Positions 1-25,452 of a stretch of 25,452 nucleotides of DNA are shown piece after piece. Made by a program: the position numbers and the translations under genes. Positions within the stretch are counted from its first letter, which is position 1; every line of letters begins with the position of its first letter. This stretch comes from a virus, in IMG/VR virus record IMGVR_UViG_3300010271_000013, one strand, 5' to 3'. A model generated the notes under the pieces. It did no database searches. It was not told where the DNA came from and saw only the letters and a program-made list of their open reading frames with translations.

Positions 1-120
1 AGGGGAGGGTTGCATAACCAGTTTGCTCCTGAGACCCAAATACTTCCACCTTGCAGGGGAGGGTTGCATAACCAGTTTGCTCCTGAGACCCAAATACTTC
101 CACCTTGCAGGGGAGGGTTG
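1..120. repeat. Tandem direct repeats: two 54-bp units plus a partial third, identical to 25333..25452
   Basis: Seen directly: unit AGGGGAGGGTTGCATAACCAGTTTGCTCCTGAGACCCAAATACTTCCACCTTGC at 1..54 and 55..108, core restarts at 109. Bases 1..120 are identical to 25333..25452. Confidence 0.9.
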
Positions 121-122
121 CA

Positions 123-326
123 TCAGCCATCTTCACATCTTCCATTCAATTTTAGGCTTAAACTCAACTGGTTCTTCACTATAGAATATTCCAAGAGAAG
201 ACTCACATATTCACAGATCCTTTGCTCAAATGTGATCCCTTCATGGACCACCTTCACACCCTCGTGGGTGTAATACGCTGAGGCATGTTTCCTCGCGGTT
301 TTGAGCGATATTGGCATGCCACTCAC
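123..326 (-). CDS. hypothetical protein (67 aa)
   Basis: ORF directly abutting the 327..761 gene in the same minus-strand operon; stop codon at 123..125 at the repeat-array boundary. No recognisable motif. Confidence 0.3.
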   Translation of the reverse strand: MSGMPISLKTARKHASAYYTHEGVKVVHEGITFEQRICEYVSLLLEYSIVKNQLSLSLKLNGRCEDG

Positions 327-761
327 TCAGATGTAAGTATATGACACCCTTATCCCGAAGTTCACATTTCCTCCTGTTGCAGTGGAGGGGATCACAAGCT
401 TCAGCTTCAATGTATGCCCTTCACCTGATGCTATCGTTCCCAGTTCTTTCATCGTGTCCCCGCCAACACTTGTAAATTCAGTGTCCCCATTAGTCTCTGA
501 TTTTACATTCAGCCATTTATCCGCGACCACTTCTGACCCCTCCTCGGGGGTGCCCCCAGTGAGTTGGCCGGTTGCTGTCACGGTGGTGATCTGGACATTC
601 TCCATATCCGAAACGCCCTCTTCCTCATCCTTATTATTGTATATTATCAGGGTTATGACGGAGGATTCTTCCCCAGCATACCACCATCCAAAATCAAGGG
701 GGTTCTCAGCATTATACTGGTAGTTAAAGTTATCCCAGAATGTCACAATTGGTGCAGTCAT
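327..761 (-). CDS. hypothetical tail-module protein (144 aa)
   Basis: ORF downstream of the tape measure gene in the same orientation and tightly packed; function inferred from position only. Confidence 0.45.
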   Translation of the reverse strand: MTAPIVTFWDNFNYQYNAENPLDFGWWYAGEESSVITLIIYNNKDEEEGVSDMENVQITTVTATGQLTGGTPEEGSEVVADKWLNVKSETNGDTEFTSVGGDTMKELGTIASGEGHTLKLKLVIPSTATGGNVNFGIRVSYTYI

Positions 762-765
762 ACAT

Positions 766-1080
766 TCACACCTCCATACATTTTAGTTTCCATGAGTATT
801 TTCCAGGTTGTGAATTCATATCCGGGGCCCACCTCAAGTATATGACAGTGGCTCCCCACTCTTTTATCCTAACAATAAGATACTCCCTATACCGGGCCCC
901 ATCGTGACTCAGGAGAGTCCTGTTCTCCGGGCCCCCAGGGGCCTCCAGTTTCAGGTTCAGGGGTTTCGGTGAACGATTACGCAGCTTCAACATCCTCACA
1001 GGTCCCTCGCTGCCCGGACGCGTCTTCCCCATCCCCAACCGTAGCACGTCCCTGCCATAGGCATCCTCAAAGGTTATCAT
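766..1080 (-). CDS. hypothetical tail-module protein (104 aa)
   Basis: ORF whose start overlaps the stop of 1077..1418 by 4 nt (translational coupling). Confidence 0.45.
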   Translation of the reverse strand: MITFEDAYGRDVLRLGMGKTRPGSEGPVRMLKLRNRSPKPLNLKLEAPGGPENRTLLSHDGARYREYLIVRIKEWGATVIYLRWAPDMNSQPGKYSWKLKCMEV

Positions 1081-1418
1081 AGTTCCACCTCCACTTCAAG
1101 GGTGTACTCAAGGAGCTCCCCACTGAACTTGTCTATGACCCGCGTGACGTAGTGAAGAGCGCCTGTCCATGAATTTTCACCATCCGAAACATCAAGTAGT
1201 TCACCGCCCGCCACCTGGATGATGTTCCCCCCATTCACTAGTTTCGTGTTTGTGATCTGCTTGCTGGCGATCTCATTCCACGCGTCAACCTCAACCCATG
1301 GATCGTCATCCACATCCTCCCTTGAAACAGCACACTTCAGAGTGATCCGTCCATTCGCGTCAGGTCCCTCCACGCTGATTATATGGGATGGTTTCAGTCC
1401 TCCTATCGTCCATTCCAT
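1077..1418 (-). CDS. hypothetical tail-module protein (113 aa)
   Basis: ORF starting 2 nt after the tape measure stop, same strand. Confidence 0.45.
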   Translation of the reverse strand: MEWTIGGLKPSHIISVEGPDANGRITLKCAVSREDVDDDPWVEVDAWNEIASKQITNTKLVNGGNIIQVAGGELLDVSDGENSWTGALHYVTRVIDKFSGELLEYTLEVEVEL

Positions 1419-1419
1419 A

Positions 1420-4400
1420 TCATATCCTCCTCATGAGGCTTGTGCCACCTTTAAGGTACATCTGGGTTTGCAGTCCATTGTTCACTGTTTCAAGTATACT
1501 CTCCCCTATAGTGCGTCCTACTTCCCTGGCAGTTTCTTTATCCTCAACTCCGTTAATGTTCTCTATCCTGACCTCATTCTTCACAGTCATTTGGGGTGTG
1601 CTCTCCGCTGGGGGTGTGCCCTCAAGGCGGCTGGGGAGTGTGAAGCCCCCGAATAAGAGGCCTGATGAGTCTTTCAGTCCCGCGTTGAAGCTACCCCCGA
1701 GACTGTACCCGTACCCGTACATCACTTCATCCGTCAAGTCCTTGAGGGGGCCCTCCCTTGGCGGTGATCTTGGGAGGTATTTTCTGATGATCGCGAGGGC
1801 TTTCTGCAGTCCAGGGATCTGTGATAGTATACCCTGTGTGAGGTTCCGGATGAATGACGCCCCCCACTCCCTGAACTTGGAGGCTATGCCACTGAAATTA
1901 GGGAGAGGTAGGCGTGGCCACTTGAATCCTGAGAATGAAGACTTCACCTTGGAGGTGAATGTGGACCACGCCCTCCTGAATGCCCCGAGGATATCAGGCA
2001 TGGATACGTTGGGGAGTCTGGGCCACCTGAACCTGGGGATATTGGATGACACCCATGACCTGAATTTGGCCCAAGCGGATTGGATAGCTCCGACTATGTT
2101 GGGTATTGTGATGTTAGGTAGGCGTGGCCACCTGAATCGGGGTATATTGGATGATACCCATGACGTGAATTTGGCCCAAGCGGATTGGATAGCAGTCACA
2201 GGGTTAGGTATGCTGAGGCTGGGAAGTCTTGGCCATTTGAAAGTGGGAATATGTTCCTTAACCCATCCTGTGAATTTGTTCCACATCTCCTGCAGAGCCG
2301 TTACAGGATTAGGAAGAGGAAGTTTAGGTAGTTGTGGCCATTTAAATGTTGGTATGCGGGTCATGACCCACACTTTGAAGTCATTCCATACTTGCCCAAA
2401 GCCTTCGATGATGTACTTTCCGGGGTCCCTAAATAATTTTGAAAGTTCCTCACGGATAGGATCCTCAATGTAGGTCTTGATATTCTGCATCAGCGCTTCC
2501 TTTAGTTTGCTCCACTTTTCAGGGCCATAGATCCCCTCAAAAAGTTTTTCAGGGGAAAACATGTTTTTAATGGAATCAGGAAGTAATGAAAGAGGTGTCG
2601 GCCCGAATAAGGATGTTGGATCAGAGAGTGCTCTGTTTAGGTATTCCCTAAAGTTTGCGAGTATATCTACACTTAAAAGAGCGACACCAACTCCTTCACC
2701 GATACCCCTTATAAGCAAGGATCCTATACGGGAACCTAACTCTGGGATACTAACCCTTGCAGCGTCATCAACACTCCCTGTAAATCTCTCTAGGAGGGTC
2801 CTTGCAGCGTCATCAATCTGAGTATCCCCTATAGTTAAATCTATTTTGGGGAGTTTGAATTTGAATTCTGCAGGGATCTCAATTTTAGGTGTTAAACGGC
2901 CTGTCTCATCACCAAGGATCCTCTTAATCGTGTCAATAAACCCCTTAATGATATCCTTTGCTTTGCCCGCCGCCTTATCAAATCCTTCAGATAATGTATC
3001 TATGAGGCGGCGTGACAGTTCCTCAGGCAACCTTCCCTTCAATTCATCGAATCCGTCGGACAATAGCCTCCTGATAGCCCCAGTGACACGTGGGATGAGT
3101 CTCTTTAAGCCTTCGGCAAGGTACTCAGCGGCTTTTGCGAATACCCCAACAAGCAGTGATTCTCCGATTAGGCCCATGTCACCGAAAAAATCGTTCAACC
3201 ACATCGCGAACTGATCCAGATAGTACCTTATCCATCCTAATATATCCCTATGTTCTTTCGCTGATTTACCGAGCGCTTTGTTCATCCTCTCAGATTCCTC
3301 TTCAGTCACCTTACTCGTGGTTTTCCAGTTACTTGCCACCTGTGCCAGCGCTGGCCCCACTGATTCACCAAAAACCTCAGTGGCAACCCTAACACGTTCC
3401 TGCTGATCAGGAATCTGAGAAAGAACCTCTATAAAATCAAAAAGCACATCCTTGAATGGCCGCAGGTTTCCATGAGCGTCCCTCACAGCCACCCCAAATC
3501 CCTCGAGTTTATCACTGTACTTTTTTACGCTTTCCCCGCCTTCAACCCATGAACTTGATATCTCTGCTAGATCCCTAGCAAATGGCCTCAGAATCCGTGT
3601 GCCTATGGGGCCTACTGATGCAATTATCCTGGCTGTATCCTCCACATTCAAACCTGCTTGTTTGAAAAAATATCCAAGGCGATCAACGGTATCAATGAAC
3701 TGTGTGAATGATGGGTAACCTGAGACCCTCCATAACCCAAGGAGCAGGTTCACTGTATCTGTTGAGTCTTGTACACTGACATTGAAGTCCCTAAAGACCC
3801 TTGCAAGTGCAAGTGTCACTGTGGATGCATCCTCACCACTCCTTTTAACCCCAAGGAGGGCTGCTTTAAAGTATCCCATAGTCAGGTTCACATCATTGGT
3901 GTAGGCTGCAAGTGTGTACATCACTGACGCTGTTCCCTTCATCCCTAGTGAGTAGACATAGTTTTCACGGATTAGATCCTCCATGGCTTCTCTCTGACTT
4001 TGAGTTGCATTTGTGAGGATTGCTGACTGCTCAATTATCTTATTATAATTCAAGAGCTCAAGTGTTTTATTATATGAGAAGAATCCCGCCGTTAAGCCAG
4101 CGACTTTTGAGGTTAAACCATCAACAGCTCCGGTGAATGTGTTTGTTGTCTCAGCAGCTGTTTCCATTGATTCTGTATCCACCGTGATCGTAGTGTCATA
4201 TGTTGTCCCATCAATCTCCTCAAGTTTTTCTTTGAAGTTTTCAATGTTTTCCTCGTTAACATCCGCGTTCAGTGTAGTTGTGACCTCATCAGGGATATCA
4301 CCTAGAAGTCCCTGTAGTCTCTCAACTATTTCTGTAGCGTTGTCATCAACATTTAATGAGATATCCACAGTGGATGGGAGCTCACTAAGAAGTTCTTTCA

Positions 4401-4800
4401 GGTTTGTGATTGGTTCTGTAGCGTTATCATCAACATTCAATGTTATGTTAAATTCATCAGAGAGTCTCTCCTTCAAAGAATCAAGCACATCAGATGCATT
4501 ATCCTCCGCGGTGAGGGTTACATTCACTTCTGATGGTAAACCATCCACAAGGTCCTTAATATTTGTGATGGTCTCTGTGGCAAAGTCATCGAATGCAGAA
4601 ATTGTGATTTCAACATCTGAGGGTAAAGTTTCAAGAGAATCCTGGATTGTCTCAAGTATTGGGGTGACAGTATCCTCTGTGGTGATATCTACTTCGACTG
4701 ATCCTGGCAGGTTGGACAGTGCATTGTTTAAATCGTTTAAACCGTTCACCACTTCCTCGGCATCCATTCTGACTTGCACGGCAAGTTCATGATCAGTCAT
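1420..4800 (-). CDS. tail tape measure protein (1126 aa)
   Basis: Longest ORF in the window, in the tail module. Five C-terminal 35-aa repeats with W/F at fixed spacing ([87 protein letters not shown] and others) and N-terminal ~28-aa repeats, as is typical of tape measure proteins. GGAGG Shine-Dalgarno-like motif about 9 nt upstream of the ATG on the minus strand. Confidence 0.75.
1830..2370. repeat. In-frame ~105-bp tandem repeats (5 copies) inside the tape measure gene; coordinates approximate
   Basis: Near-identical DNA blocks around 2020..2090 and 2125..2195 (GGCCACCTGAA...CCCATGAC.TGAATTTGGCCCAAGCGGATTGGATAGC), matching the 35-aa protein repeats. Confidence 0.7.
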
Positions 4801-4843: not shown

Positions 4844-5557
4844 GTGAAAAATAGTATTGGGGTGTTTGTGTTGAAGCTTCAATGTAAAGAATGCGGCAGG
4901 GAGTACACATTACAGGATGATGAAGACCCCATGGATTACACATGCGAATGCGGGGGGAACCTAGAGAAAGACGAAGATCTAAGTGTATTAAAAGGCAGCA
5001 TATACCTTGCATTTATGTGGTTAGCGGCAGCTACAAATGGGGGTATCCAGGGGTTAGGGCTTCTTCTAATAGAATTGATATTATTCATTTTGCCAGCTAT
5101 AATCATATCAGCCATAATTCTCCGCGAAAAAAACCCTAAAGAATTACTTGGCATTGAGGGCATCCTATTCATCATATTAGGCATAATCGTCATCCATGAC
5201 CCTAAAAGCCTGATCTATGGTGCCTTCGGTATATTAGGATTACTAGCAGGGGTGGTCCTAACCATTGAAGGAGTGCTTGGCACTATTAAAGGAGATTCTG
5301 ATAAAGAAGGGCCCAGGGAAGTAGAAGGAGGTTTCCATGTCCTCCACGCAACAGCTATCCTCCTAGGAAGTTACATTGCATTACTTCTGATCAACCCCAC
5401 TGCAAGTGAAAGTGAGGGTATCATGGCCCTCACTATCATGTTCCTAGTTCCAATCCTCACTGCACTAAGCATAATCTACAGGAAAGATAACCCTAAACCT
5501 CTTAGATCAGTCCAATTAATAACCGCTATGATCATCTTATTCGTCCTCATCATTTAA
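4844..5557 (+). CDS. multi-pass membrane protein with N-terminal CxxC...CxC zinc-ribbon-like motif (237 aa); true start may be an internal GTG or TTG
   Basis: Only long ORF in the 4801..5536 gap and on the opposite strand to its neighbours. N-terminus CKECGREYT...YTCECGG, followed by about six hydrophobic helix-length segments separated by charged loops. Overlapping minus-strand ORFs translate to low-complexity sequence. Confidence 0.5.
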
Positions 5558-9783: not shown

Positions 9784-10971
9784 CTATAGTGGTCTGCCAA
9801 ACCTGTCCACACCCATCTCCTCATATAGTGTGTGGGCTCCCTTAACGGCTCCTACTTGGCCCTTAATTGCCTGCGCATCCTCCCCTTTTGGTTCATCAAT
9901 AGTTTCTTCTGATGTTTCAGGCTCCTCAATGGCCTCATCTGATGTTTCAGGTTCACCACTGGGCTCTGTCTGGGTACTTTTTATGGATTTCAACTCATCC
10001 ATCACTTCCTTTATCGAGTTTCTGAGCGAATCTATCTCAGCCTTCAAAGCCTGGACTTCCCCGGCACCCACTACTTCTTCAACTGTTTTGTCATTCTCAA
10101 AATACTGTTTCAGACTATCGAATATGCTTTTAAGCACGGATTTCTCATCCATCTTATCACCTCCCCCTTTAAGGGATAGGTATTTTGCTTTTGGGACTGC
10201 TGGCCTGTCCACGATCGAAACGGTCACTACTTCGAATGGCCAGCCAATATCCTCCAGGGTCGTTTTTTTCATCGCCGCTGGGATGGCTGTGATGCTGAAA
10301 CCCTGATATTTGCCCTGGACGATCCCTTTCCATGTGTCATCATCGTATACTTTTGCTGAGAGTATCCATGTGCCCTCAGGGAGTTCCACATCCCCTATCA
10401 CTGTATCCTCTCTCAGGATGAAGGATTCCACTGGTTTCGCCACATTCTTGAAGCGGTGGAGGATGTCAATGTTCTGATAGTTCTCCATGAAATTGTAGGC
10501 TACTTCTTCGATCTGATCTTTGGTGAGGATATCCCCGTCCAGGTCATATTCATCTGGGACCAGGACCGGGCCTGTGACTATCCGCTGGTGCTTATCCACC
10601 TTAATTATCATGTTCTGTTGTATGCACTGCCCCTGGCATTTCTCAGTTTTTTCATCGATCATTTCAAGGAGTCTGCCTGCGGCATCGAATATCTCATCGT
10701 TACGTGTTGCTCCTCTAGCCCCTGCAGCAGAGGATCGTATAGCTCTGAGTGCTTGGAGGTACACCTCCCCTTCACGACCATAAGGATAAGCATATGCCCC
10801 TGCAGTGCTGGGGTCAGCATCGGGGTTTACTGCAAGATGGAATAATGCGTACTCTTCGACATCATTGAAGTCCTTGAGGTCGGGCTTCTCCCATTCACCA
10901 TCATTAATTTTCCCAGCCTCTATGAGGCTCTTTGCATTTTCATATCCTTTCCTATGCAATTTCCAAGTCAC
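9784..10971 (-). CDS. putative prohead protease and/or scaffolding protein (395 aa)
   Basis: Position between head-morphogenesis-like and capsid genes. C-terminal third looks coiled-coil and very acidic (EPSGEPETSDEAIEEPETSEETIDEPKGED), scaffold-like. The protease assignment is a guess. Confidence 0.35.
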   Translation of the reverse strand: MTWKLHRKGYENAKSLIEAGKINDGEWEKPDLKDFNDVEEYALFHLAVNPDADPSTAGAYAYPYGREGEVYLQALRAIRSSAAGARGATRNDEIFDAAGRLLEMIDEKTEKCQGQCIQQNMIIKVDKHQRIVTGPVLVPDEYDLDGDILTKDQIEEVAYNFMENYQNIDILHRFKNVAKPVESFILREDTVIGDVELPEGTWILSAKVYDDDTWKGIVQGKYQGFSITAIPAAMKKTTLEDIGWPFEVVTVSIVDRPAVPKAKYLSLKGGGDKMDEKSVLKSIFDSLKQYFENDKTVEEVVGAGEVQALKAEIDSLRNSIKEVMDELKSIKSTQTEPSGEPETSDEAIEEPETSEETIDEPKGEDAQAIKGQVGAVKGAHTLYEEMGVDRFGRPL

Positions 10972-11794: not shown

Positions 11795-13423
11795 TTACAG
11801 TTCCCTCCATCCTATAACCTTATAGAGGTAGTGTCGTATCCTCCCCATCATATCCTCAACAGATGCTTCTAGGAGTTCCTCATACCTCTCAAGATTCAAT
11901 GGTTTGGATGGGATTACAGATACTCCCTGGTTGAGGGCTGACATAGAACCCATATCCCCGCCTATGATGAGCATTTTCTTTCCAGCCTCATATGCCTCGG
12001 CCCTGAACTCTGCCAGGACTTCATCGATTTTTTTCTTTTTTTCTTCGGCACTGAGTTTTGATGATATGATTTCATTGAAGCGTGGACGGTATTTGGCATA
12101 GATCTTCCTGATTTCCCTGATCTGGTTTTTCTCATAGTTTCTTTCCTGTCTCTTCACAGACTTGGCAGCACCCTTTGATGGTACCATGAATATGTCAGGG
12201 CCACCATCCAAACCAAACAGTCTTTCACGCGCCTCGGCGGGTGTGAGGACTCCTGACTGTACAAGGAGTGCGTAATTCCTCACTGAGTCTGACTCTAGGA
12301 GGGTTTCATCATTAAATTTAAATCTTGTTTTGGGGTTGAATTTCACTTGAAAGAAATCTGTAAGTATGGAGGATATGATGTTCTGCTGTGGTCTCACAAC
12401 AGACTCATAGTATGTGCGTCGGGTTACCTCAGCGAAGTTACCACCCAATGGGCCTGTGTCAGCTATCCCCAACCTGTAAGGGTCGATCATGTGGGCTGCT
12501 GCAATATCATATTTTTTCTCAGCAGCATACTCCCTGAAGCTTAACTCTTTCTGTGACGTGTTTAATGGGGTGAAAGTGACTTTCACAGTATCCCCCCCGG
12601 GTATTGAGAAGACAAGGGGGGTGTGTGGGGCTTCTTTGAGGTGTTTGAAATTATCCTCGATCAATGCTTGGAGGACAGTTCTCCCGGTGGGGTTCCCATC
12701 AGGGTCCTCCTCAAGTTCATCTTCAAATTCCCCCGTCACTGTAATCACATAACTAGGGATCGTGTAATTGTCAAAGAATGCATAGTTGTATTCATCGATT
12801 TTCTGCATCGCCAAGATCGCAGGGGCTGCTGAAACGTACCGTGGGACGCCATAGTAGCTGCATACAGGGGAGGGTATATGGATAAAGACAAGTTCATTTG
12901 CCCCTACACTATCCTGGTCCTCTCCTGTTTCAGGGTTGATTTCCCCTTCATAACGGTAGTCCTTGAAGTGGGTGATGTTAACCCCGTCCCAGGTCTGCCG
13001 GTACCTTGAACCATCCTTATGCACCCTGATCGTATGGGAAGGGATATATTCAAACCTGATAGGGTCGCCCTGGCCATCCCTCACAACTTCAAGTGTGCAG
13101 TAATTAAAAACCTGAAGATCCTCAAGGGCCCTGAGGAGGACGTATTCAAATGAAGGTTTACATGCCCTGATGAACTCATCGACCACCCCTTCATCGTCTC
13201 CTTCTAAAATGTAACCTGTCCTGATAATATCATTAGCTTTAATACTACAGGCGCTGGCATGATAGGGATTGACCTGGAGGAGTGAAAGCAGGACAAGTGG
13301 ATTGACTTTGGGTTCCACGTACTCCTCAAAACGTGTCTCCCCAAGGGCCTGTGATTCCACTTCCTCCCTCTTAATAGCCTTATACTTTTCAAGTGACCTG
13401 ATTGAGAGGTGATAATTAAACAT
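11795..13423 (-). CDS. putative portal protein (542 aa)
   Basis: Start overlaps the terminase large subunit stop; size typical; sits between terminase and head-morphogenesis genes. Confidence 0.6.
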   Translation of the reverse strand: MFNYHLSIRSLEKYKAIKREEVESQALGETRFEEYVEPKVNPLVLLSLLQVNPYHASACSIKANDIIRTGYILEGDDEGVVDEFIRACKPSFEYVLLRALEDLQVFNYCTLEVVRDGQGDPIRFEYIPSHTIRVHKDGSRYRQTWDGVNITHFKDYRYEGEINPETGEDQDSVGANELVFIHIPSPVCSYYGVPRYVSAAPAILAMQKIDEYNYAFFDNYTIPSYVITVTGEFEDELEEDPDGNPTGRTVLQALIEDNFKHLKEAPHTPLVFSIPGGDTVKVTFTPLNTSQKELSFREYAAEKKYDIAAAHMIDPYRLGIADTGPLGGNFAEVTRRTYYESVVRPQQNIISSILTDFFQVKFNPKTRFKFNDETLLESDSVRNYALLVQSGVLTPAEARERLFGLDGGPDIFMVPSKGAAKSVKRQERNYEKNQIREIRKIYAKYRPRFNEIISSKLSAEEKKKKIDEVLAEFRAEAYEAGKKMLIIGGDMGSMSALNQGVSVIPSKPLNLERYEELLEASVEDMMGRIRHYLYKVIGWREL

Positions 13424-14822
13424 GCCTCCTCCTCCTTCTGAGGGGTCCTGAGATGTAAATCTTCTTCTTTCTCCTCATCTCCATTGATAATATGTTAAAA
13501 GCACCACTGAACGCATCGACCTGATCGTCATGGACACCCTCCATGGGGAAGGCCTCCAATTCATCAAGGAATGCCCTTGTCCAGGAAGCTCTGAGGACTT
13601 TGATGCGCCCTGATTCCGCATAACTTGAAACGGGAAGGGCGCGTGTCACCTTATCCCCAGTCACGCGGTCAGCCCTGAATGTGTAGCCTTGGAGTAGGCT
13701 TCTAAGGTAATCAGTGACTATCTTACCTGAGGATCCTGGCTCCTCCTCCTTAGCGATGATCACTTCACGCCCATCCTCCTCAGCAGTCCTCAGGACCTTC
13801 GATTTAACCTTTCCAGGGGATTCTCTGAACCGCCGGACATCAAGAACATAATAGTAATCCTCCTTATCCACTCCCAGAAGCAAACCAACTGTATAGTCAG
13901 GGTCATTGGCCCCGTCAGGTTTAGTTGCTGCGAAATCCCAGTACCTGACGCTCATCACAAGACCATTTGGGGGTGAATCAATGACCTCAAACCATTCCCT
14001 CTTGAAAACTCCACCCTGCAGTGTAACATCCCAGTCCCCATCTTTCAACTGCCTACGGGTTACATGGTCAAGCATATTCAGGGCCTCTTCATATTCATCC
14101 CGGTTAAGATAAGGGTTTTCCCTCCATGTTGAGGGGATGAATGTCTTTTCACCTGTAATGAAGCGGGTTTTAACCCATTCATGCCCAATACCTCCAGGGT
14201 TACTGGTGGCCCTGACGCGTAGAGGTATGTGATCATTCACTTCCTTACGGAGTGATCGGAACATGAAACGATACTGGGTCTCCATGAACTCTGTGAGTTC
14301 ATCGAATGCGATATAATGATATGATGATCCCTGGTATCTGTAGCGGTCCTTTTCATGTTCCATATGCCCAAACTGCAATGCAGCGCCGGAGGGGAATGTC
14401 CACCGTTTTTTCTGTTCATTCCACTCTGCATCCGTCCCCCCAAGCCAGTCATTTGCCATGTCTATAAGGCCTCCTTCCTGGCTGAGCTCAGGATAGGTTC
14501 GGCGCAGGATTAGGGCGGCGTAATCAGAGTAATGCACATACTGCAGGGCCCCCATAAGTAAAGCCACTGATTTACCGCCACCTGCAGCACCACCATACAG
14601 GACTTCACGTTCATCTGACAATAGAAACTTAATCTGTTTATGGAAGGGGTTCACAGGGATATATGGGTTCAATATTATCGTCGAATAGAACAGCTTCAAT
14701 TCCCTGTCAGAGAGGCCCTGGAGGATGCTTCGAATATTCTCTGATTCTTTCAGTTTCTTTTTCCAGTCAGCCACCTTCACCTTCAGCCTCTTCATCATCC
14801 AGGCCTTCATCCATACCCTCAT
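13416..14822 (-). CDS. terL: terminase large subunit (468 aa); true start may be one of the internal Met codons
   Basis: Walker A-like GGAAGGGKS in VLYGGAAGGGKSVALL, Walker B-like IAFDELTEF, and a C-terminal acidic nuclease-like segment (VHDDQVDAF). Upstream of the portal gene. Confidence 0.8.
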   Translation of the reverse strand: MRVWMKAWMMKRLKVKVADWKKKLKESENIRSILQGLSDRELKLFYSTIILNPYIPVNPFHKQIKFLLSDEREVLYGGAAGGGKSVALLMGALQYVHYSDYAALILRRTYPELSQEGGLIDMANDWLGGTDAEWNEQKKRWTFPSGAALQFGHMEHEKDRYRYQGSSYHYIAFDELTEFMETQYRFMFRSLRKEVNDHIPLRVRATSNPGGIGHEWVKTRFITGEKTFIPSTWRENPYLNRDEYEEALNMLDHVTRRQLKDGDWDVTLQGGVFKREWFEVIDSPPNGLVMSVRYWDFAATKPDGANDPDYTVGLLLGVDKEDYYYVLDVRRFRESPGKVKSKVLRTAEEDGREVIIAKEEEPGSSGKIVTDYLRSLLQGYTFRADRVTGDKVTRALPVSSYAESGRIKVLRASWTRAFLDELEAFPMEGVHDDQVDAFSGAFNILSMEMRRKKKIYISGPLRRRRRHV

Positions 14823-15288
14823 CCTTCAGGTTCTTCGTGGCCGACACAAGATCCTCCAGCAAATCCTCCAGTTCACCACCACTTTCACGGTGTTCATGTA
14901 TCTCAGTAGGATCCCCCAGGCCCAATGCTATTGCTAATCCAAGGTTATGGAGGTCCTTAGATGTCTGTAAAGTGAGGCCTTCCCCTCCATTCTCGATGGA
15001 TTCAATGTAACCCTCCAGTGTGAGGCTGCAAGCCTTAAGGTATTTGCTCCAGAGGTCAGCATAATACTCCTTTGACTCCTCTGATAATTCTTCACGCGCT
15101 CTTCTTATCTCCTGGAGTTGTTTTTTCTCGTACTGGTATATCCTCTCCCGCCACCTGAGTTTGGATGACCATCCTCTGATTGTGTCATATGAGTATCCGA
15201 ATTTTTCAGCGACTTTTTTCAGGTTTCTTTTGTCGCCAAGGGAGTAGTAGTATTCGAATGCTTTTCTTTGGGTTGGTGTTTCTTTCAT
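14767..15288 (-). CDS. putative terminase small subunit / DNA-binding protein (173 aa)
   Basis: Immediately upstream of and overlapping terL. Basic N-terminal helix-turn-helix-like region (RKAFEYYYSLGDKRNLKKVAEKFGYSYDTIRGW) and acidic C-terminus. Confidence 0.4.
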   Translation of the reverse strand: MKETPTQRKAFEYYYSLGDKRNLKKVAEKFGYSYDTIRGWSSKLRWRERIYQYEKKQLQEIRRAREELSEESKEYYADLWSKYLKACSLTLEGYIESIENGGEGLTLQTSKDLHNLGLAIALGLGDPTEIHEHRESGGELEDLLEDLVSATKNLKDEGMDEGLDDEEAEGEGG

Positions 15289-18014: not shown

Positions 18015-18482
18015 TCATCCTTTCACCCCCAGGGTGGTTTGATCAGCGGGGATCTTTTCTTCACGGATCTGGCTTTTGGGGAGCCAGTAAGACTCCCCTT
18101 TAGGTGTTCTCAGCAGTATGGCCTTGGGTGTTTCATGTTCTATTGTCCCTGTCACTCTTTCCCTGGTGAGTCCTTTTTCCTCAGCAAGCCAAGCAGGCAC
18201 TTTGAATGTGCGCATGCATTCATGGTCACCGTATTCTTCATATGATTCGTTGAGTATGTGCTGCAGGACTGCCCAGCAATGTTTGCAGATGTATGAACCC
18301 TCATCGCCATGACGGTACTGGTAATCAGGGCATTCGCATCGTATCATGTTATCCAGTACTGTGACAAGGTATTCCCCATTCTCTGACCGGGTGATGAATG
18401 GTAGTAATGCATCATCCCCAGGTAGAGGTTCGACTTGAATGTTCTGCGCCTTCCGCAGCCTCCGTAGGTGTTCCCCCACCAT
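18015..18482 (-). CDS. SWIM-type zinc-finger protein (155 aa)
   Basis: CECPDYQYRHGDEGSYICKHC matches the SWIM pattern CxC-x(n)-CxH. Confidence 0.5.
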   Translation of the reverse strand: MVGEHLRRLRKAQNIQVEPLPGDDALLPFITRSENGEYLVTVLDNMIRCECPDYQYRHGDEGSYICKHCWAVLQHILNESYEEYGDHECMRTFKVPAWLAEEKGLTRERVTGTIEHETPKAILLRTPKGESYWLPKSQIREEKIPADQTTLGVKG

Positions 18483-20742: not shown

Positions 20743-21936
20743 TTATCTCATTCTCTTCAAAAACTCAGGATCTGAAACAATAATATTATAGATTTTCTCC
20801 GTTTTCTTCACCCACTCCCTCAACTTCTCCTGAGACTCACGCAACTCCTTAATCTCCCTCTCCTTAGCCTCCAACTCCCGCACAATCTCCCGCACCTCAT
20901 CAGACATAACACGACGCACACGTGACCTCTCCAACGTAAGAGCATGCATCCTCTTCCTATACTCCCTCTCCATGTGCCCAATATTCGCCTTGAAGTAAGC
21001 CTCAGTAACAGGATGAACCTTATGGCCAAGGCACCAATCAATCATGAGTTTATCCATCCCCTCCCTGTAGAGGATGCTCGTGAAAAGCTTCCTTAACTTA
21101 TGAGATGTGAAGCGTCGTGATCCATCATCACAGACGCCTAAACCTAGAGTGTCATTGATCCTTATGAATATCTTAACATAATAGTTCTGTGATAATCGTT
21201 TACCCTGCCAGGTTGCGAATAAGGGATCCTCTGGGCCTCCAAGGAAACCTTTCATTCGCCGATGTTTCAGGTACTCAAGGATCTTCAGGTTGGCCTCGGG
21301 GGTGGTGAAGGTCACATAGGGCATCCCCGTCTTCACGCGTCTAATCCTCCAGACACCCACAATCTCCTCATCCTGGATCTTCCTCCGCACTTCATCATAT
21401 TCAGCTCCCAGGACGCGGACTCCGAGGGCCTCCTCGTAGTCATTTATTGTGAGGCTTCTTACCTCAGCGCCTCCCATTCCACTGCTAACCTGTAGGAGGA
21501 TTATTGCCTTTTCGCGTGAGGGGACGTTGTCCACGACGTATTTTACTTCATCGAGTGATATAATGTCCTCCATTGACCCATTCATCGCCCTACTCTTGTA
21601 GGTGATCCGTGGCGGGTCTATCTCGTATTCATTGTACAGGGATTTTATCCTGGCGAGGTATATGTTGATTGTTGATGGTTTAACTCCTTTTTCTTCAAGG
21701 TATTGGATGTACTGGAGGAAGTATGTCCTGATGCTACGTTTTCTTCTCCGAACGCCACGGTCCTGTTCTTCTTCGGCTTCTTCTATGAGTTCTGTGAGCG
21801 TATTTTTACCCGTGGCTTTGAGGTAGTGTTTCAATGCTCCTTTGTATGTTTCTATCGTTCTTTTTTTTATGTTATGTGACAGGATAAAGTCCTGGAATAG
21901 TGGGTCTGTCTCGGGGAGTGGTTTTTTGGTGGGCAT
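20743..21936 (-). CDS. int: tyrosine recombinase / integrase (397 aa)
   Basis: N-terminal core-binding-like region, and a C-terminal catalytic region with HKLRKLF (H-x-x-R) and LGHKVHPVTEAYF (His and nucleophile Tyr). T-rich run after the stop on the transcribed strand. Confidence 0.8.
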   Translation of the reverse strand: MPTKKPLPETDPLFQDFILSHNIKKRTIETYKGALKHYLKATGKNTLTELIEEAEEEQDRGVRRRKRSIRTYFLQYIQYLEEKGVKPSTINIYLARIKSLYNEYEIDPPRITYKSRAMNGSMEDIISLDEVKYVVDNVPSREKAIILLQVSSGMGGAEVRSLTINDYEEALGVRVLGAEYDEVRRKIQDEEIVGVWRIRRVKTGMPYVTFTTPEANLKILEYLKHRRMKGFLGGPEDPLFATWQGKRLSQNYYVKIFIRINDTLGLGVCDDGSRRFTSHKLRKLFTSILYREGMDKLMIDWCLGHKVHPVTEAYFKANIGHMEREYRKRMHALTLERSRVRRVMSDEVREIVRELEAKEREIKELRESQEKLREWVKKTEKIYNIIVSDPEFLKRMR

Positions 21937-22161
21937 GAATAATTTCTATGGGTGCATTGTCCATAAATGTGGACTTTTATCTGAACTTTCTCATCTTAAA
22001 GGTTGATATTTTTGTCCCTATTTCCGCCACATTTGACATACAAAGCACCCATCAATGTAATACATGAACTTTTATCGACAATGCCAACCAACAATCAATT
22101 ACACATGTTCCTGCCACCTGCAAACAAACAAACGCAAACTACTTTTTCTTTTATTCCTTTT

Positions 22162-23043
22162 TTAATCTGATGTGATCACACCCCAACCAATGTGCTGGAA
22201 CCCTGCTGTGCAACATGGCACCCCCAGGGGCCTCCCCGTCTTCGTAGCGGAGACATAATCCCATATCGTCCCATCCTTGAGCTCAAACCCGCCAACTCTC
22301 AGGAGGTAGTGGCCGTACCATTTCCCGTCGTTACACTTCACCCGAACATGTTCGATTTTCACCTCGTAGCCCATCTCTTCGAGGACCTTGCTGAAGAGTT
22401 GGCAGGCGTCGGTGCAATTGATCCCCTCATCAGTCATCCTCCTCACCGCATCGTCATCACTATATTTGTCATTATAGTAGTATTTGTAGTTGCATTTTCT
22501 TGCGACCGCACCATACAGTGTCGTTGCATCCACGAAGTCCCCTATCTTCTTCAGGACTCTCTTTGTCCACTCACCCTCCAGTCGCGGTCTCTCTATGTAT
22601 ACCACCTGGGGTTCCCTTCCATACCTGTCCTTGAAATTGTTGTATCGTCTCACCATGTCCCTGAATGTTTCGAGTGGGATGGATTCCCCTCCCCCTGAGC
22701 GGATGAATATGACGCGGGGTTCCCTCTTGTTCTTCATTTTGAAGTCCTCATACCTCTTCAACATGTCCTTGAACGTTTCGAGGGGTACTGATTCCCCTCC
22801 CCCTGAGCGGATGAATATGACGCGGGGTTCCCTCTTGTTCTTCATTTTGAAGTCCTCATATCTCTTGCACATGTCTTTGAAGGTTTCTAACGATACGCTT
22901 GGGCCCCCACCTGAGTAGATGAACACTACCCTGGGTTCTCTCCCATTAACCTCCTTGAAGCGGTTGTACCTGCTTAACATGTCTTTAAATTGGGTTATGG
23001 ATACATACTCTGGAGTGTTCTTATTAATCATGTCCACCTCCAA
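22162..23043 (-). CDS. pei: pseudomurein endoisopeptidase-like lysin (293 aa): tandem wall-binding repeats plus Cys/His/Asp peptidase domain
   Basis: Three near-identical ~36-aa repeats (EPRVVFIYSGGGPSVSLETFKDMCKRYEDFKMKNKR, EPRVIFIRSGGGESVPLETFKDMLKRYEDFKMKNKR, EPRVIFIRSGGGESIPLETFRDMVRRYNNFKDRYGR). C-terminal domain has candidate triad Cys in INCTDACQLF, His in GHYLLRV, Asp in DGTIWD, the order used by transglutaminase-like Pei enzymes. Confidence 0.6.
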   Translation of the reverse strand: MEVDMINKNTPEYVSITQFKDMLSRYNRFKEVNGREPRVVFIYSGGGPSVSLETFKDMCKRYEDFKMKNKREPRVIFIRSGGGESVPLETFKDMLKRYEDFKMKNKREPRVIFIRSGGGESIPLETFRDMVRRYNNFKDRYGREPQVVYIERPRLEGEWTKRVLKKIGDFVDATTLYGAVARKCNYKYYYNDKYSDDDAVRRMTDEGINCTDACQLFSKVLEEMGYEVKIEHVRVKCNDGKWYGHYLLRVGGFELKDGTIWDYVSATKTGRPLGVPCCTAGFQHIGWGVITSD

Positions 23044-23055
23044 AAATTAGATTCA

Positions 23056-23688
23056 TTAAACTCCTCCACTACTCCCACAAGTAAATCCAAGCGTCCCACA
23101 CTTGATATATTCTTCTCCACCGAATACCTTCACCCTTACCTTGTACTCCACATCCCTATCTAGTGACCCCCAGAAGTTGTATATTACTAGGGACAAGGGG
23201 ATGGTGCCGGAGCCTAGGAACCATACCCCATAAACCTCATCATTAATTTCAGTAATCACCCCTGACCCTGCGAAGTCCTCATCTCCAGTGTATTCATTCA
23301 GGAAATGGGTCAGAGAAAGTTGCCCATCACCATCCTCTGGGATCATAACCCTAAATTCACCTGCCACTATTTCCTCACCAGGATAGGATGCCGGCCGATT
23401 CACACCATTGAAGAAGATGAAGCTATCATCCCCCCTCAGACACCTGTCATCCACGACCCCACAACCATCACACAAACAAGAGGGGCCATGCGCAACACCT
23501 CCACCATCACGTAGAGGTGAAACAAACACACGATCCCCCACCTTAAAACTTGACCTTCCACGTGCAATATCCTGCCCACGTGAGGGGTGGACAGCCACCT
23601 GACCCCCTACATTGAACTTCCCAGGACCCACACCACCATCACCCCCATCACTGATCCTCCTCAACATGAACCTGTCCCCAGGCTTCAA
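23056..23688 (-). CDS. Gly/Cys-rich hypothetical protein, possible tail fibre or spike (210 aa)
   Basis: ORF between the 447-aa tail-associated protein and the lysin; Gly-rich and Cys-rich segments. Confidence 0.4.
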   Translation of the reverse strand: MKPGDRFMLRRISDGGDGGVGPGKFNVGGQVAVHPSRGQDIARGRSSFKVGDRVFVSPLRDGGGVAHGPSCLCDGCGVVDDRCLRGDDSFIFFNGVNRPASYPGEEIVAGEFRVMIPEDGDGQLSLTHFLNEYTGDEDFAGSGVITEINDEVYGVWFLGSGTIPLSLVIYNFWGSLDRDVEYKVRVKVFGGEEYIKCGTLGFTCGSSGGV

Positions 23689-23691
23689 CCA

Positions 23692-25035
23692 TCACACCCC
23701 CTTCACAGGTTTCCCATAATTACCATAGAGTTGGCTGTAGACTGAGACAAGGACTGTACTGGTCCTTTCATTCACATCTGAGACTGTATGGATACTGCTC
23801 AGTTTCTGTTGTGACTCTATCATGTTCAGGACCGTCTCGGCGAGGTTCTTGTTCGATTCAACATCAGGGTTGTCACTAAAATCAACCCTAGTCCTGCGGC
23901 CGCCATTATCCCCCTCCCATGACACGTTCGTCACAGTGAACACCTTATCTCCTGTCTCATAGGGGAACCTTATGGATTCCCCTGGATGGAATGTTTGCAA
24001 GCCTGGCACCTCAAAACTCCCGGTTGTAATGGGGTCCTTGGTCTTCCTCAGGGCTTCCTCCAGTTTCCTCATGAGCTCATTTATACATTCCTTCATCCAT
24101 TCTTCTTCTCTTGGCTGATCTGAATACAGTCCTCCGCGGGGGCCGCCCCAACGGTACAGCCATGCCATGAAGTCCTCAGGACTCCCTTTATGTCCATGAT
24201 TCAACCAGTCCAAGTAGACCATGTACCCATGCATGTAATTCATCATATCCGCGTATCTTTTCACTTCACTAGGGGAGGGTGGTGTCTCCTCTTTATCATT
24301 TTCAGTGGGGGGTGGGTTGCAGGTGACGGTGATCCTCTCCCCAACCCTGAGACCATACTTTTCTATGCTTGCAGCATCACTCACCGAACGTGTGACTTCA
24401 CCATTGGGTCCTGTAGCACCCTCATAGTAGTTGTACACCCCTTCACTTGACTCCCTGATCTCAATGTTAATCATGTTCTCCACGGGCAGGTCGGTCACAT
24501 CCCCCTTACTGAACACTCTGAAAGTACCATATGGGTCTATATACCACCCCACATTCGCATCCTGATCATTCGCAACAGTGAAGAGCGTGTTAAGTGCTTC
24601 TACCTTACTCCTGAATTCCCCTCCATAAAAATAAGGGTCAAGGGCATTATTAGAGAACTGCACCTGGGGTATGCTCTCTGATGCGCCTATAATTATCTTG
24701 GTGTCCCTCAGGATGTTCTCAATGATCTCCCTCATGGGGAACACTCTACCCCCGCGGAGAACAGCACCAAATGCAAAGGGTTGTCTGGATAGGAGGAATG
24801 CATCATTATATCCGCCAATTGTGTATTGAAGACCATTTGCTGAGCGTGTCATGGTCACCGTCTCAGCGCGGCCAGTGAACACTTCATTATCCCTAACGAG
24901 GAACTGGATCTTATCCCCTGTCTTAAATTCTTTTTTCTCTCGTGGCCTTATTGTGACAGTGAATGATGTAGCTGCATCGTTCAGTCTTTGCTGGATATTG
25001 AAACTCACAAGTCCCTTTTCAGGCATATTCCACAT
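23692..25035 (-). CDS. putative tail-associated / baseplate protein (447 aa)
   Basis: Large ORF continuing the tail module across the window junction; no motif recognised. Confidence 0.45.
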   Translation of the reverse strand: MWNMPEKGLVSFNIQQRLNDAATSFTVTIRPREKKEFKTGDKIQFLVRDNEVFTGRAETVTMTRSANGLQYTIGGYNDAFLLSRQPFAFGAVLRGGRVFPMREIIENILRDTKIIIGASESIPQVQFSNNALDPYFYGGEFRSKVEALNTLFTVANDQDANVGWYIDPYGTFRVFSKGDVTDLPVENMINIEIRESSEGVYNYYEGATGPNGEVTRSVSDAASIEKYGLRVGERITVTCNPPPTENDKEETPPSPSEVKRYADMMNYMHGYMVYLDWLNHGHKGSPEDFMAWLYRWGGPRGGLYSDQPREEEWMKECINELMRKLEEALRKTKDPITTGSFEVPGLQTFHPGESIRFPYETGDKVFTVTNVSWEGDNGGRRTRVDFSDNPDVESNKNLAETVLNMIESQQKLSSIHTVSDVNERTSTVLVSVYSQLYGNYGKPVKGV

Positions 25036-25452
25036 CCCTGATTTTTACCTTGAGTTCACCATCATCCCTAATATCTTGAATGATCTCGCCTTCAAGGGTG
25101 AGATCATATTCAACCATCTCCCCTGTGTCAACCCGCACGTAGCAGGGGATGTATCTCATGGATGTGCTCTCATCAACCATCACCCCTACCCTGATGGGGA
25201 GTGTTGTGTGTAGGGATTTCCGTTCAGGACGCCTAACTTTTAGCGTGCAGGGGAGGGTTGCTTCCCTAAATCCTGTTATACCTACTCTGCAGGGGAGGGT
25301 TGCTTCCCTAAATCCTGTTATACCTACTCTGCAGGGGAGGGTTGCATAACCAGTTTGCTCCTGAGACCCAAATACTTCCACCTTGCAGGGGAGGGTTGCA
25401 TAACCAGTTTGCTCCTGAGACCCAAATACTTCCACCTTGCAGGGGAGGGTTG
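25019..25452 (-). CDS. repeat-containing small protein whose 5' part is encoded by the tandem array; on a closed circle it would start at ATG 143..145 (about 152 aa); could instead be a short ORF starting at ATG 25178..25180
   Basis: Minus-strand frame is open through every repeat unit (54 bp = 18 codons, 42 bp = 14 codons), giving ATLPCKVEVFGSQEQTGY and ATLPCRVGITGFRE repeats. The same frame crosses the junction to MEDVKMAD starting at 143..145, with a stop just upstream at 146..148. Confidence 0.3.
   Translation of the reverse strand, partial: TLPCKVEVFGSQEQTGYATLPCKVEVFGSQEQTGYATLPCRVGITGFREATLPCRVGITGFREATLPCTLKVRRPERKSLHTTLPIRVGVMVDESTSMRYIPCYVRVDTGEMVEYDLTLEGEIIQDIRDDGELKVKIRDVEYA
25247..25452. 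repeat. Composite tandem array: 2 x 42-bp units, then 2 x 54-bp units, then partial core; continues at 1..120
   Basis: Units at 25247..25288 and 25289..25330 (42 bp), 25331..25384 and 25385..25438 (54 bp), each starting with the core GCAGGGGAGGGTTG. Copies of each unit type are nucleotide-identical. Confidence 0.9.

Follow-up and report, generated by a model that had tools for sequence, protein, structure and literature searches.

The tandem array that spans the two ends of this viral sequence is very probably an in-frame repeat of variable copy number, located in a small gene that belongs to the tail-tip module of a psiM2-like virus whose host is a pseudomurein-walled methanogen, probably Methanothermobacter. 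The analysis covered the whole 25,452-nt stretch of IMG/VR record IMGVR_UViG_3300010271_000013, which is referred to as the window. The N-terminal two thirds of the encoded protein are built from short modules in which a conserved (A)TLPCxVxV segment is joined to a variable tail. Two module types stand in perfect tandem: A, of 18 aa and 54 bp, and B, of 14 aa and 42 bp. Among genomes with 100% identical flanks, the A unit is found once, twice or at least three times and the B unit once or twice, and the length of the encoded protein ranges from 115 to at least 165 aa.

Architecture of the repeat array

An earlier note, made from the letters of the sequence, had described two 42-bp and at least two 54-bp perfect units with a common 14-bp core, as well as exact identity between bases 1-120 and 25333-25452. 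The units were confirmed by Tandem Repeats Finder (TRF), which reported a period of 42 at 25246-25345 (2.4 copies) and a period of 54 at both 25330-25452 and 1-123 (2.3 copies each), all with 100% match, and the identity between the two ends is exact. A common core does exist, but the stretch shared by the 42-bp and 54-bp units is 16 bp long (TGCAGGGGAGGGTTGC) rather than 14. It codes for ATLPC and is the same in the A, B and adjoining C modules. The 14-mer GCAGGGGAGGGTTG is found on the plus strand at 53, 107, 25247, 25289, 25331, 25385 and 25439 and nowhere on the minus strand of the window, and two of the seven copies belong to the duplicated window end. Perfect tandem copies of 42 and 54 bp are far beyond what chance can produce. 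The elements of the array are as follows:

1..123, minus strand: A units at the window start, 2.28 units adjoining the start codon of the gene (TRF)
25330..25452, minus strand: A units at the window end, 2.28 units adjoining the B units, each coding for ATLPCKVEVFGSQEQTGY (TRF and translation)
25246..25329, minus strand: two perfect 42-bp B units (TRF period 42, 100% match, and translation)
25345-25304 and 25303-25262, minus strand: the B units in protein phase, each coding for ATLPCRVGITGFRE (translation)
25261-25205 and 25204-25151, minus strand: degenerate units ATLPCTLKVRRPERKSLHT and TLPIRVGVMVDESTSMRY, respectively, followed by IPCYVRV... (translation)

The array encodes part of a small protein

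The unit lengths of 42 and 54 bp correspond to 14 and 18 codons, and the minus frame passes through the array without a stop. In general form, this frame reads MAD, ATLPCKVEVFGSQEQTGY x n, ATLPCRVGITGFRE x m and then degenerate copies of the motif; with the window closed into a circle, it reads MAD-ATLPCKVEVFGSQEQTGYx2-ATLPCRVGITGFREx2-ATLPCTLKVRRPERKSLHT-TLPIRVGVMVDESTSMRY-IPCYVRVDTGEM...VEYA, and the diverged motif copies continue in frame into unique sequence. The gene and its immediate neighbours are:

123..317, minus strand: 64-aa ORF directly upstream, called as a gene in contigs L004, L028 and L029
1..130, minus strand: repeat-protein gene, 5' part, translated across the closed junction and continuing into 25332 and below
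25019..25332, minus strand: repeat-protein gene, 3' part, with B units, degenerate units and C-terminal region (translation)
23692..25026, minus strand: 444-aa gene directly downstream, with a baseplate-hub-like N-terminus (translation)

Since the antisense plus frame is likewise open through the array, the argument for coding rests on context and not on openness alone. The flanking genes are all on the same strand as the repeat gene, which overlaps each of its neighbours by 8 nt (ATGNCTGA): the stop of the 64-aa ORF overlaps the ATG of the repeat gene (ATGGCTGA), and the ATG of the 444-aa gene overlaps the TGA stop of the repeat gene (ATGCCTGA), which lies at 25021-25019 on the minus strand. 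Gene callers placed the start ATG at 130-128 on related contigs, and a second in-frame ATG is present at 145. Gene calls in independent assemblies gave proteins of 129, 147 and 151 aa (L003, L004, L022 and L029). In L029, a TGC-to-TGT change in the core of all three A units is synonymous, so that the cysteine is kept and the DNA word is not. Substitutions in the repeat gene between lineages are few and mostly non-synonymous, which fits fast evolution and gives no signal of purifying selection.

Of the proposal in the earlier note that the array might be a coding contingency repeat, the coding part stands, whereas contingency in the sense of on/off switching does not; a frame-shifting contingency locus was rejected, every allele seen being in frame. 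The repeat therefore alters the length of the protein and not its expression.

Unit number varies between otherwise identical genomes

The earlier note had proposed a comparison of unit number between related isolates. Related genomes carry A1B1, A1B2, A2B2, at least A3B2, and A3B1; exact protein look-ups recovered A1B1, A1B2 and A2B2 together with the variants that have diverged B units. The alleles and their sources are listed here:

A1B1: 115 aa, 25,377-bp contig (exact protein look-up)
A1B'1 and A1B''B', with diverged B units: 115 and 129 aa, NCBI, ENA and Logan sequences
A1B2: 129 aa, L003, integrated in a 275.7-kb contig, and L004, which is NODE_997
A2B2, with AABB read through: 147 aa, L022, within a 113-kb contig
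At least A3B2: protein not assembled, contig k141_71839
a3B1, with three A units and one B unit: 151 aa, L029, from a Japanese biogas fermenter, a lineage 98-99% identical

L004 is 100% identical to the window over the 10,079 and 3,415 bp that flank the array, and the only difference between the two is one A unit. Contigs L019 and L020 share 100% identity over 14.7 kb. One end of contig k141_71839 consists of the flank, AA and 49 nt of a third A unit, and the other of 47 nt followed by A and BB, which amounts to at least 2.9 A units; the sole consistent overlaps between these ends, 96 or 42 nt, give three or four A units. Because genomes that are otherwise identical differ in unit count, the expansion must be recent and repeated, and it has affected both unit types and two lineages. 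The suggestion of recent expansion in the earlier note is thereby upheld (one, two or at least three A units and one or two B units in otherwise identical genomes), and its caution that copy number cannot be trusted from an assembly was well placed, the count differing between genomes that agree everywhere else.

Genome length follows the formula 25,140 + 54·nA + 42·nB, and the 25,332 bp given in the earlier note for the closed circle is merely the A2B2 allele of this formula rather than the length of the genome. For annotation, this reading supplies the right genome-length formula and guards against calling a packaging site, or a terminal repeat of 120 bp, in error. The virus recurs in many assemblies, at least some of them from biogas fermenters, and the module count in a small tail-tip gene offers a cheap, PCR-sized marker of virus population dynamics.

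A psiM2 relative with a different tail-tip module

The only megablast matches among GenBank phages were Methanobacterium phage psiM2 and Methanothermobacter provirus psiM100, with psiM2 matching at 94.5% nucleotide identity over 45% of the window, in the structural module. All genes in the window except one are on the minus strand, and both PeiP (Peptidase_C71 + PMBR) and a Phage_integrase domain are present. Judged by sequence, the element appears to belong to the Leisingerviridae / Psimunavirus group, having the head-tail module, PeiP and integrase in common with psiM2 and psiM100. The following genes anchor the comparison:

14767-15288, minus strand: small terminase
13416-14822, minus strand: large terminase
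11795-13423, minus strand: portal
9784-10971, minus strand: XkdF-like protease, with head and tail genes next
1420..4800, minus strand: tape-measure gene (phrog_33360, E=0; 72% amino-acid identity to psiM2 ORF21)
1077-1418, minus strand: 113-aa ORF, ORF22 homologue (35% identical to psiM2 ORF22)
766-1080, minus strand: 104-aa ORF
327-761, minus strand: 144-aa ORF
22162-23043, minus strand: PeiP, pseudomurein endoisopeptidase
20743-21936, minus strand: integrase

The gene order terminase, portal, head, tail, tape measure, tail tip, PeiP, integrase is that of psiM2 and psiM100, which are 94.5 and 87.4% identical in nucleotide sequence, respectively, over structural and other shared modules, and in psiM100, as here, att sites flank Int...Pei. 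The tape-measure gene marks the start of the tail-tip module, and the order across the junction is 64-aa ORF, repeat gene, 444-aa hub-like gene, 210-aa ORF, PeiP and integrase. In contrast to psiM2 and psiM100, the tail-tip module that follows the ORF22 homologue is replaced in the window. The 104-, 144-, 64-, repeat-, 444- and 210-aa proteins have no match in psiM2 or psiM100, and the TLPC motif is absent from both genomes.

The tail-tip module comprises window positions 327-1080, 123-317 and 23056-25026 and has no psiM2 or psiM100 counterpart, while the other genes of the structural module are ~94% identical to psiM2; on these sequence comparisons, the tail-tip module looks like the product of a swap. 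Two further coding repeats were observed. One, in the tape-measure gene (window 2010-2235), has a period of 105 bp (35 aa, 78% match), and the annotation of psiM2 ORF21 mentions 9 direct repeats. The other, in PeiP (window 22650-22923), has a period of 108 bp (36 aa, 85-90% match) and corresponds to the pseudomurein-binding repeats. The sole sizeable plus-strand ORF, at 4844-5557 (237 aa; gene calls in related contigs give 228 aa), has no Pfam match and lies just upstream of the tape-measure gene, where psiM100 has its oppositely oriented ORFE. The minus-strand gene at 18015-18482, which lies in the early or replication region, encodes a protein of 155 aa that contains a SWIM zinc finger (E=3.3e-8).

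Predicted role of the repeat protein

The N-terminus of the 444-aa protein matches the baseplate hub family phrog_177 (E=1.5e-6), and a weak, sub-threshold match to Pfam GpP-like_1st was also found (E=0.0096, 16.3 bits against a cut-off of 27). The repeat gene lies between the tape-measure gene and this hub-like gene, with which it is translationally coupled; from this position and coupling, we infer that the repeat protein is a component of the tail tip, where it likely serves as a shaft or adhesin. Searches with the repeat protein gave no Pfam, PDB or informative PHROG match. Its AlphaFold2 monomer model (P0001) is all-beta, with a pLDDT of 34.7, a confidence too low to be usable. The module pattern and this low-confidence all-beta model would fit a beta-repeat shaft or adhesin with a length or valency set by the number of units. 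The adenovirus fibre shaft is built from pseudo-repeats of 15-20 residues that form a triple beta-spiral, and the number of modules sets the length of the fibre. The modules described here are similar in that a conserved hydrophobic, Pro-containing segment is followed by a loop of variable length; this is a resemblance, and the searches gave neither a sequence nor a structure match.

BLAST of 24700-25452 against GenBank phages in 'distant' mode returned no match, and an exact 25-mer at the gene start had 0 matches in IMG/VR. When 5.8 billion protein clusters were searched by word index, neither the hub nor the repeat protein matched anything outside its own lineage, and PDB searches with the hub and the 210-aa protein found nothing. 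The core-gap-core pattern had 3 matches in GTDB and 10 in JGI metagenomes. All of them are GC-rich intergenic or 18-bp repeats, and they were rejected as unrelated, BLAST having shown no similarity to the window. When 1.84 billion representatives were searched in full with HMMER, only weak, repeat-driven matches emerged, among them one satellite translation and one Cna_B adhesin, and these were likewise set aside.

The B unit GFREATLPCRVGIT scored 12.8 bits against a matrix built from 59 14-residue units, compared with a maximum of 11.9 in 2,000 shuffles. Three proteins of the representative library, P0003, P0004 and P0007, share with the B unit a repeat period of 14 residues, although the invariant D and the first R of their family are E and P in the B unit. 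The HMMER scores to such 14-residue-repeat proteins are inflated by repetition, and a spurious satellite translation scored equally. The resemblance is weak and in register and may serve as a lead only. P0003, P0004 and P0007 are themselves large, with dozens of 14-residue repeats of the consensus (A/G)(Y/F)RDAxxR(V/I)R(V/L)x(V/I)x; P0004 also carries a Laminin_G_3 domain. The repeat has no Pfam family, and the three proteins may represent an undescribed fibre-repeat family.

Mechanism and meaning of the length variation

The identical 16-bp cores would act as direct repeats 42 or 54 bp apart, and replication slippage or unequal recombination, either between cores or between whole units, would add or remove whole modules in frame; this is the simplest mechanism that we can infer. 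Each module may be a beta-strand-plus-loop element in a shaft- or adhesin-like part of a tail-tip accessory protein that would be made together with the baseplate hub, and the number of units could then tune reach or avidity during adsorption. Taken one step further, the array might be an adaptive 'length dial,' where slippage at the cores continually generates virions with one to four or more modules from which Methanothermobacter populations in reactors select. We put this forward as a speculative idea that is rather unlikely. If true, it would make the array an arms-race locus in a methanogen virus, comparable to the gp37 duplications of T4 except that it would be natural, with two unit types and changes visible in time-series metagenomes. 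Very little is known about host recognition by methanogen viruses, and the repeat gene is a concrete candidate for an adsorption determinant.

Neutral length polymorphism is a serious alternative. The array would then be a slippage hotspot that is coding and polymorphic, in a region that is a tolerant linker and where unit number has no effect. The coexistence of all alleles in near-identical genomes, integrated copies included, is in line with such neutrality, as are the lack of a domain or structure match and the low confidence of the AlphaFold model. However, the motif is kept as diverged copies in unique sequence, from which it follows that the modular architecture is old and retained; moreover, two lineages underwent expansion independently, with both unit types involved, and length and valency usually matter for genes of the tail-tip module, to which this one belongs. 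On balance, we consider neutrality somewhat unlikely.

Whichever way the length variation is read, in-frame duplication between short direct repeats is a mechanism well known from bacteriophages. In gp37, the tail-fibre adhesin of T4, the duplicated segment is reportedly bounded by short conserved motifs that serve as points of recombination or slippage; these duplications of a small domain are the subject of Tétart et al. (1996, J Mol Biol 258:726; cited in PMC6365445). The T4 case and the array have in common the in-frame tandem duplication of a short tail-protein segment in variable copy number. They differ in that gp37 is the known adhesin and an effect on host range has reportedly been shown by experiment, whereas the array lies in an orphan protein of a virus with an archaeal host, has much shorter units of 14 and 18 aa, and contains two unit types. 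In the Enterococcus phage EfV12-phi1, in-frame tandem duplications of 1.8 kb in a tail-fibre gene arose under experimental coevolution and were first noticed via assembly and coverage anomalies (PMC6365445). As in the array, the number of in-frame duplications in a tail gene varied within one evolving population, although the units were 1.8 kb in size compared with 42 and 54 bp here. The array is a further instance of such duplication, this time in an archaeal virus, in an orphan protein and with two unit types that share one core.

Attachment site, integrated copies and DNA-level readings of the array

Host-virus junctions in related contigs locate the attachment site of the virus away from the array:

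21987..22004 (about), no strand assigned: attP core region; minus strand AACCTTTAAGATGAGAAA, shared core TTTAAGATGAGAAA

This region is located between the integrase and PeiP genes, and the integrated copies L003 (attR side) and L018/L021 (attL side) lose identity to the window at 21987 and 22004. The window is unbroken across attP, where the integrated copies are split, and it thus represents an excised, replicating or virion-derived form rather than an integrated provirus. The att core of psiM100 is a different one (TTTATTATTAAAAATTT), and no tRNA gene was found near the att site in the host flanks. NODE_997 (L051 and L043, ENA ERZ795096) is ~3.4 kb longer than the genome; the attP junction is internal to the contig, which ends in attR and 41 nt of host sequence, indicating that excised and integrated forms coexist in the ERZ795096 sample. 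Over 7,359 nt, only one base distinguishes L003 (ERZ27245371) from the window. This change, at L003 position 5249 (window 2162), converts codon 880 of the tape-measure gene from TCA to TAA and splits the gene into 879 + 210 aa, and the L003 provirus may be defective.

The array could in principle be a DNA-level site (pac, origin iterons, att or a protein-binding array), with the terminal repeat as the physical ends of the genome. The five to seven direct copies of a 16-bp word, the 42-bp spacing equal to four helical turns and the contig ends that fall in the array all have the look of such a site. Nevertheless, the array is contained in an ORF that is translationally coupled to both neighbours, its core tolerates synonymous change in another lineage (L029), and integrated copies as well as the wrap-around contig read straight through it. 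The earlier note had suggested a packaging or recombination site, and neither suggestion survives the positions of the genes concerned, the attP core lying at about 21987-22004, outside the array, and the array being inside a gene and ~10 kb from the small and large terminase genes (13416-15288). Candidate sites of the attP or site-specific recombination type and of the pac/cos type were rejected on these same positions. An iteron-type origin was discarded as well, the repeats being coding and the adjoining genes being tail genes with no replication gene among them. A CRISPR-like array, which would have repeats of about 23 nt or more and unique spacers between them, was rejected because the repeat is 16 bp, the 'spacers' are identical pairs and the array has no Rfam match. 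An RNA gene was rejected as well. The DNA-level reading is largely refuted, and we regard it as very unlikely.

Circular map and the break in the array

The array is best understood as a coding repeat interrupted by the ends of a contig. In the earlier note, the element was judged circular or terminally redundant, and the circular map holds: once closed with two A units, the window contains, base for base, the 6,435 bp of L022 from an independent 113-kb contig, which makes the join real. NODE_997 (28,734 bp) starts with 'ATG' and ABB, rounds the genome, recrosses the array and ends 41 nt past attR. The length of the A1B1 contig is, by arithmetic, that of a clean circle at k=141 (25,377 = 25,236 + 141). 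A circular map is expected of an excised or replicating form, and also of a genome that is packaged by headful with circular permutation. Packaging in psiM1 and psiM2 is reportedly by headful, with ~3 kb of terminal redundancy, and circularity is ordinary for this virus group.

The 120 bp shared by the window ends is not a unique overlap, since both ends lie in 54-periodic sequence, and overlaps of 12, 66 and 120 bp all satisfy the equality of start and end. Both ends stop exactly where a 123-mer turns fully periodic: 25330..25452 is the first fully 54-periodic 123-mer encountered from the B side, with a periodic run of exactly 123 nt. The two end 123-mers are 3 nt out of phase, which leaves 120 bp, and the 'terminal repeat' is a by-product of both ends being 123-mers of one 54-periodic sequence. 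Such exact ends are the pattern expected from de Bruijn assembly at k=123, which we take to be the last value in the JGI MEGAHIT k-list. The ends of the JGI contigs L025, L026 and L019 coincide to the base with those of the window; at one JGI contig end, the periodic run is 108 bases and not 123. The array is also where at least 13 other contigs stop, and these come from several samples and two assemblers. Short-read de Bruijn assembly would stop at the array if the repeat is too long or is polymorphic in the sample. A two-unit array (126 periodic nt) contains no repeated 123-mer, and the break in the array would therefore imply at least three units or mixed alleles in the sample.

That the duplicated units themselves arose during assembly (by the collapse or over-extension of a repeat or by a chimeric join, the true sequence having single units) is suggested by the break of the window within the array and by assemblies with just one A unit, but this is extremely unlikely, considering that single units cannot yield k-mers spanning A-core-A and B-core-B, that AABB was assembled within the 113-kb contig by a different run, that the A2B2, A1B2 and A1B1 proteins are each recorded from separate contigs, and that the A1B1 contig closes cleanly. 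The start of NODE_997 is exactly the 3-nt 'ATG' common to the 5' flank of the gene and the end of the A unit, a hint that the assembly graph branches there between alleles with one unit and those with several.
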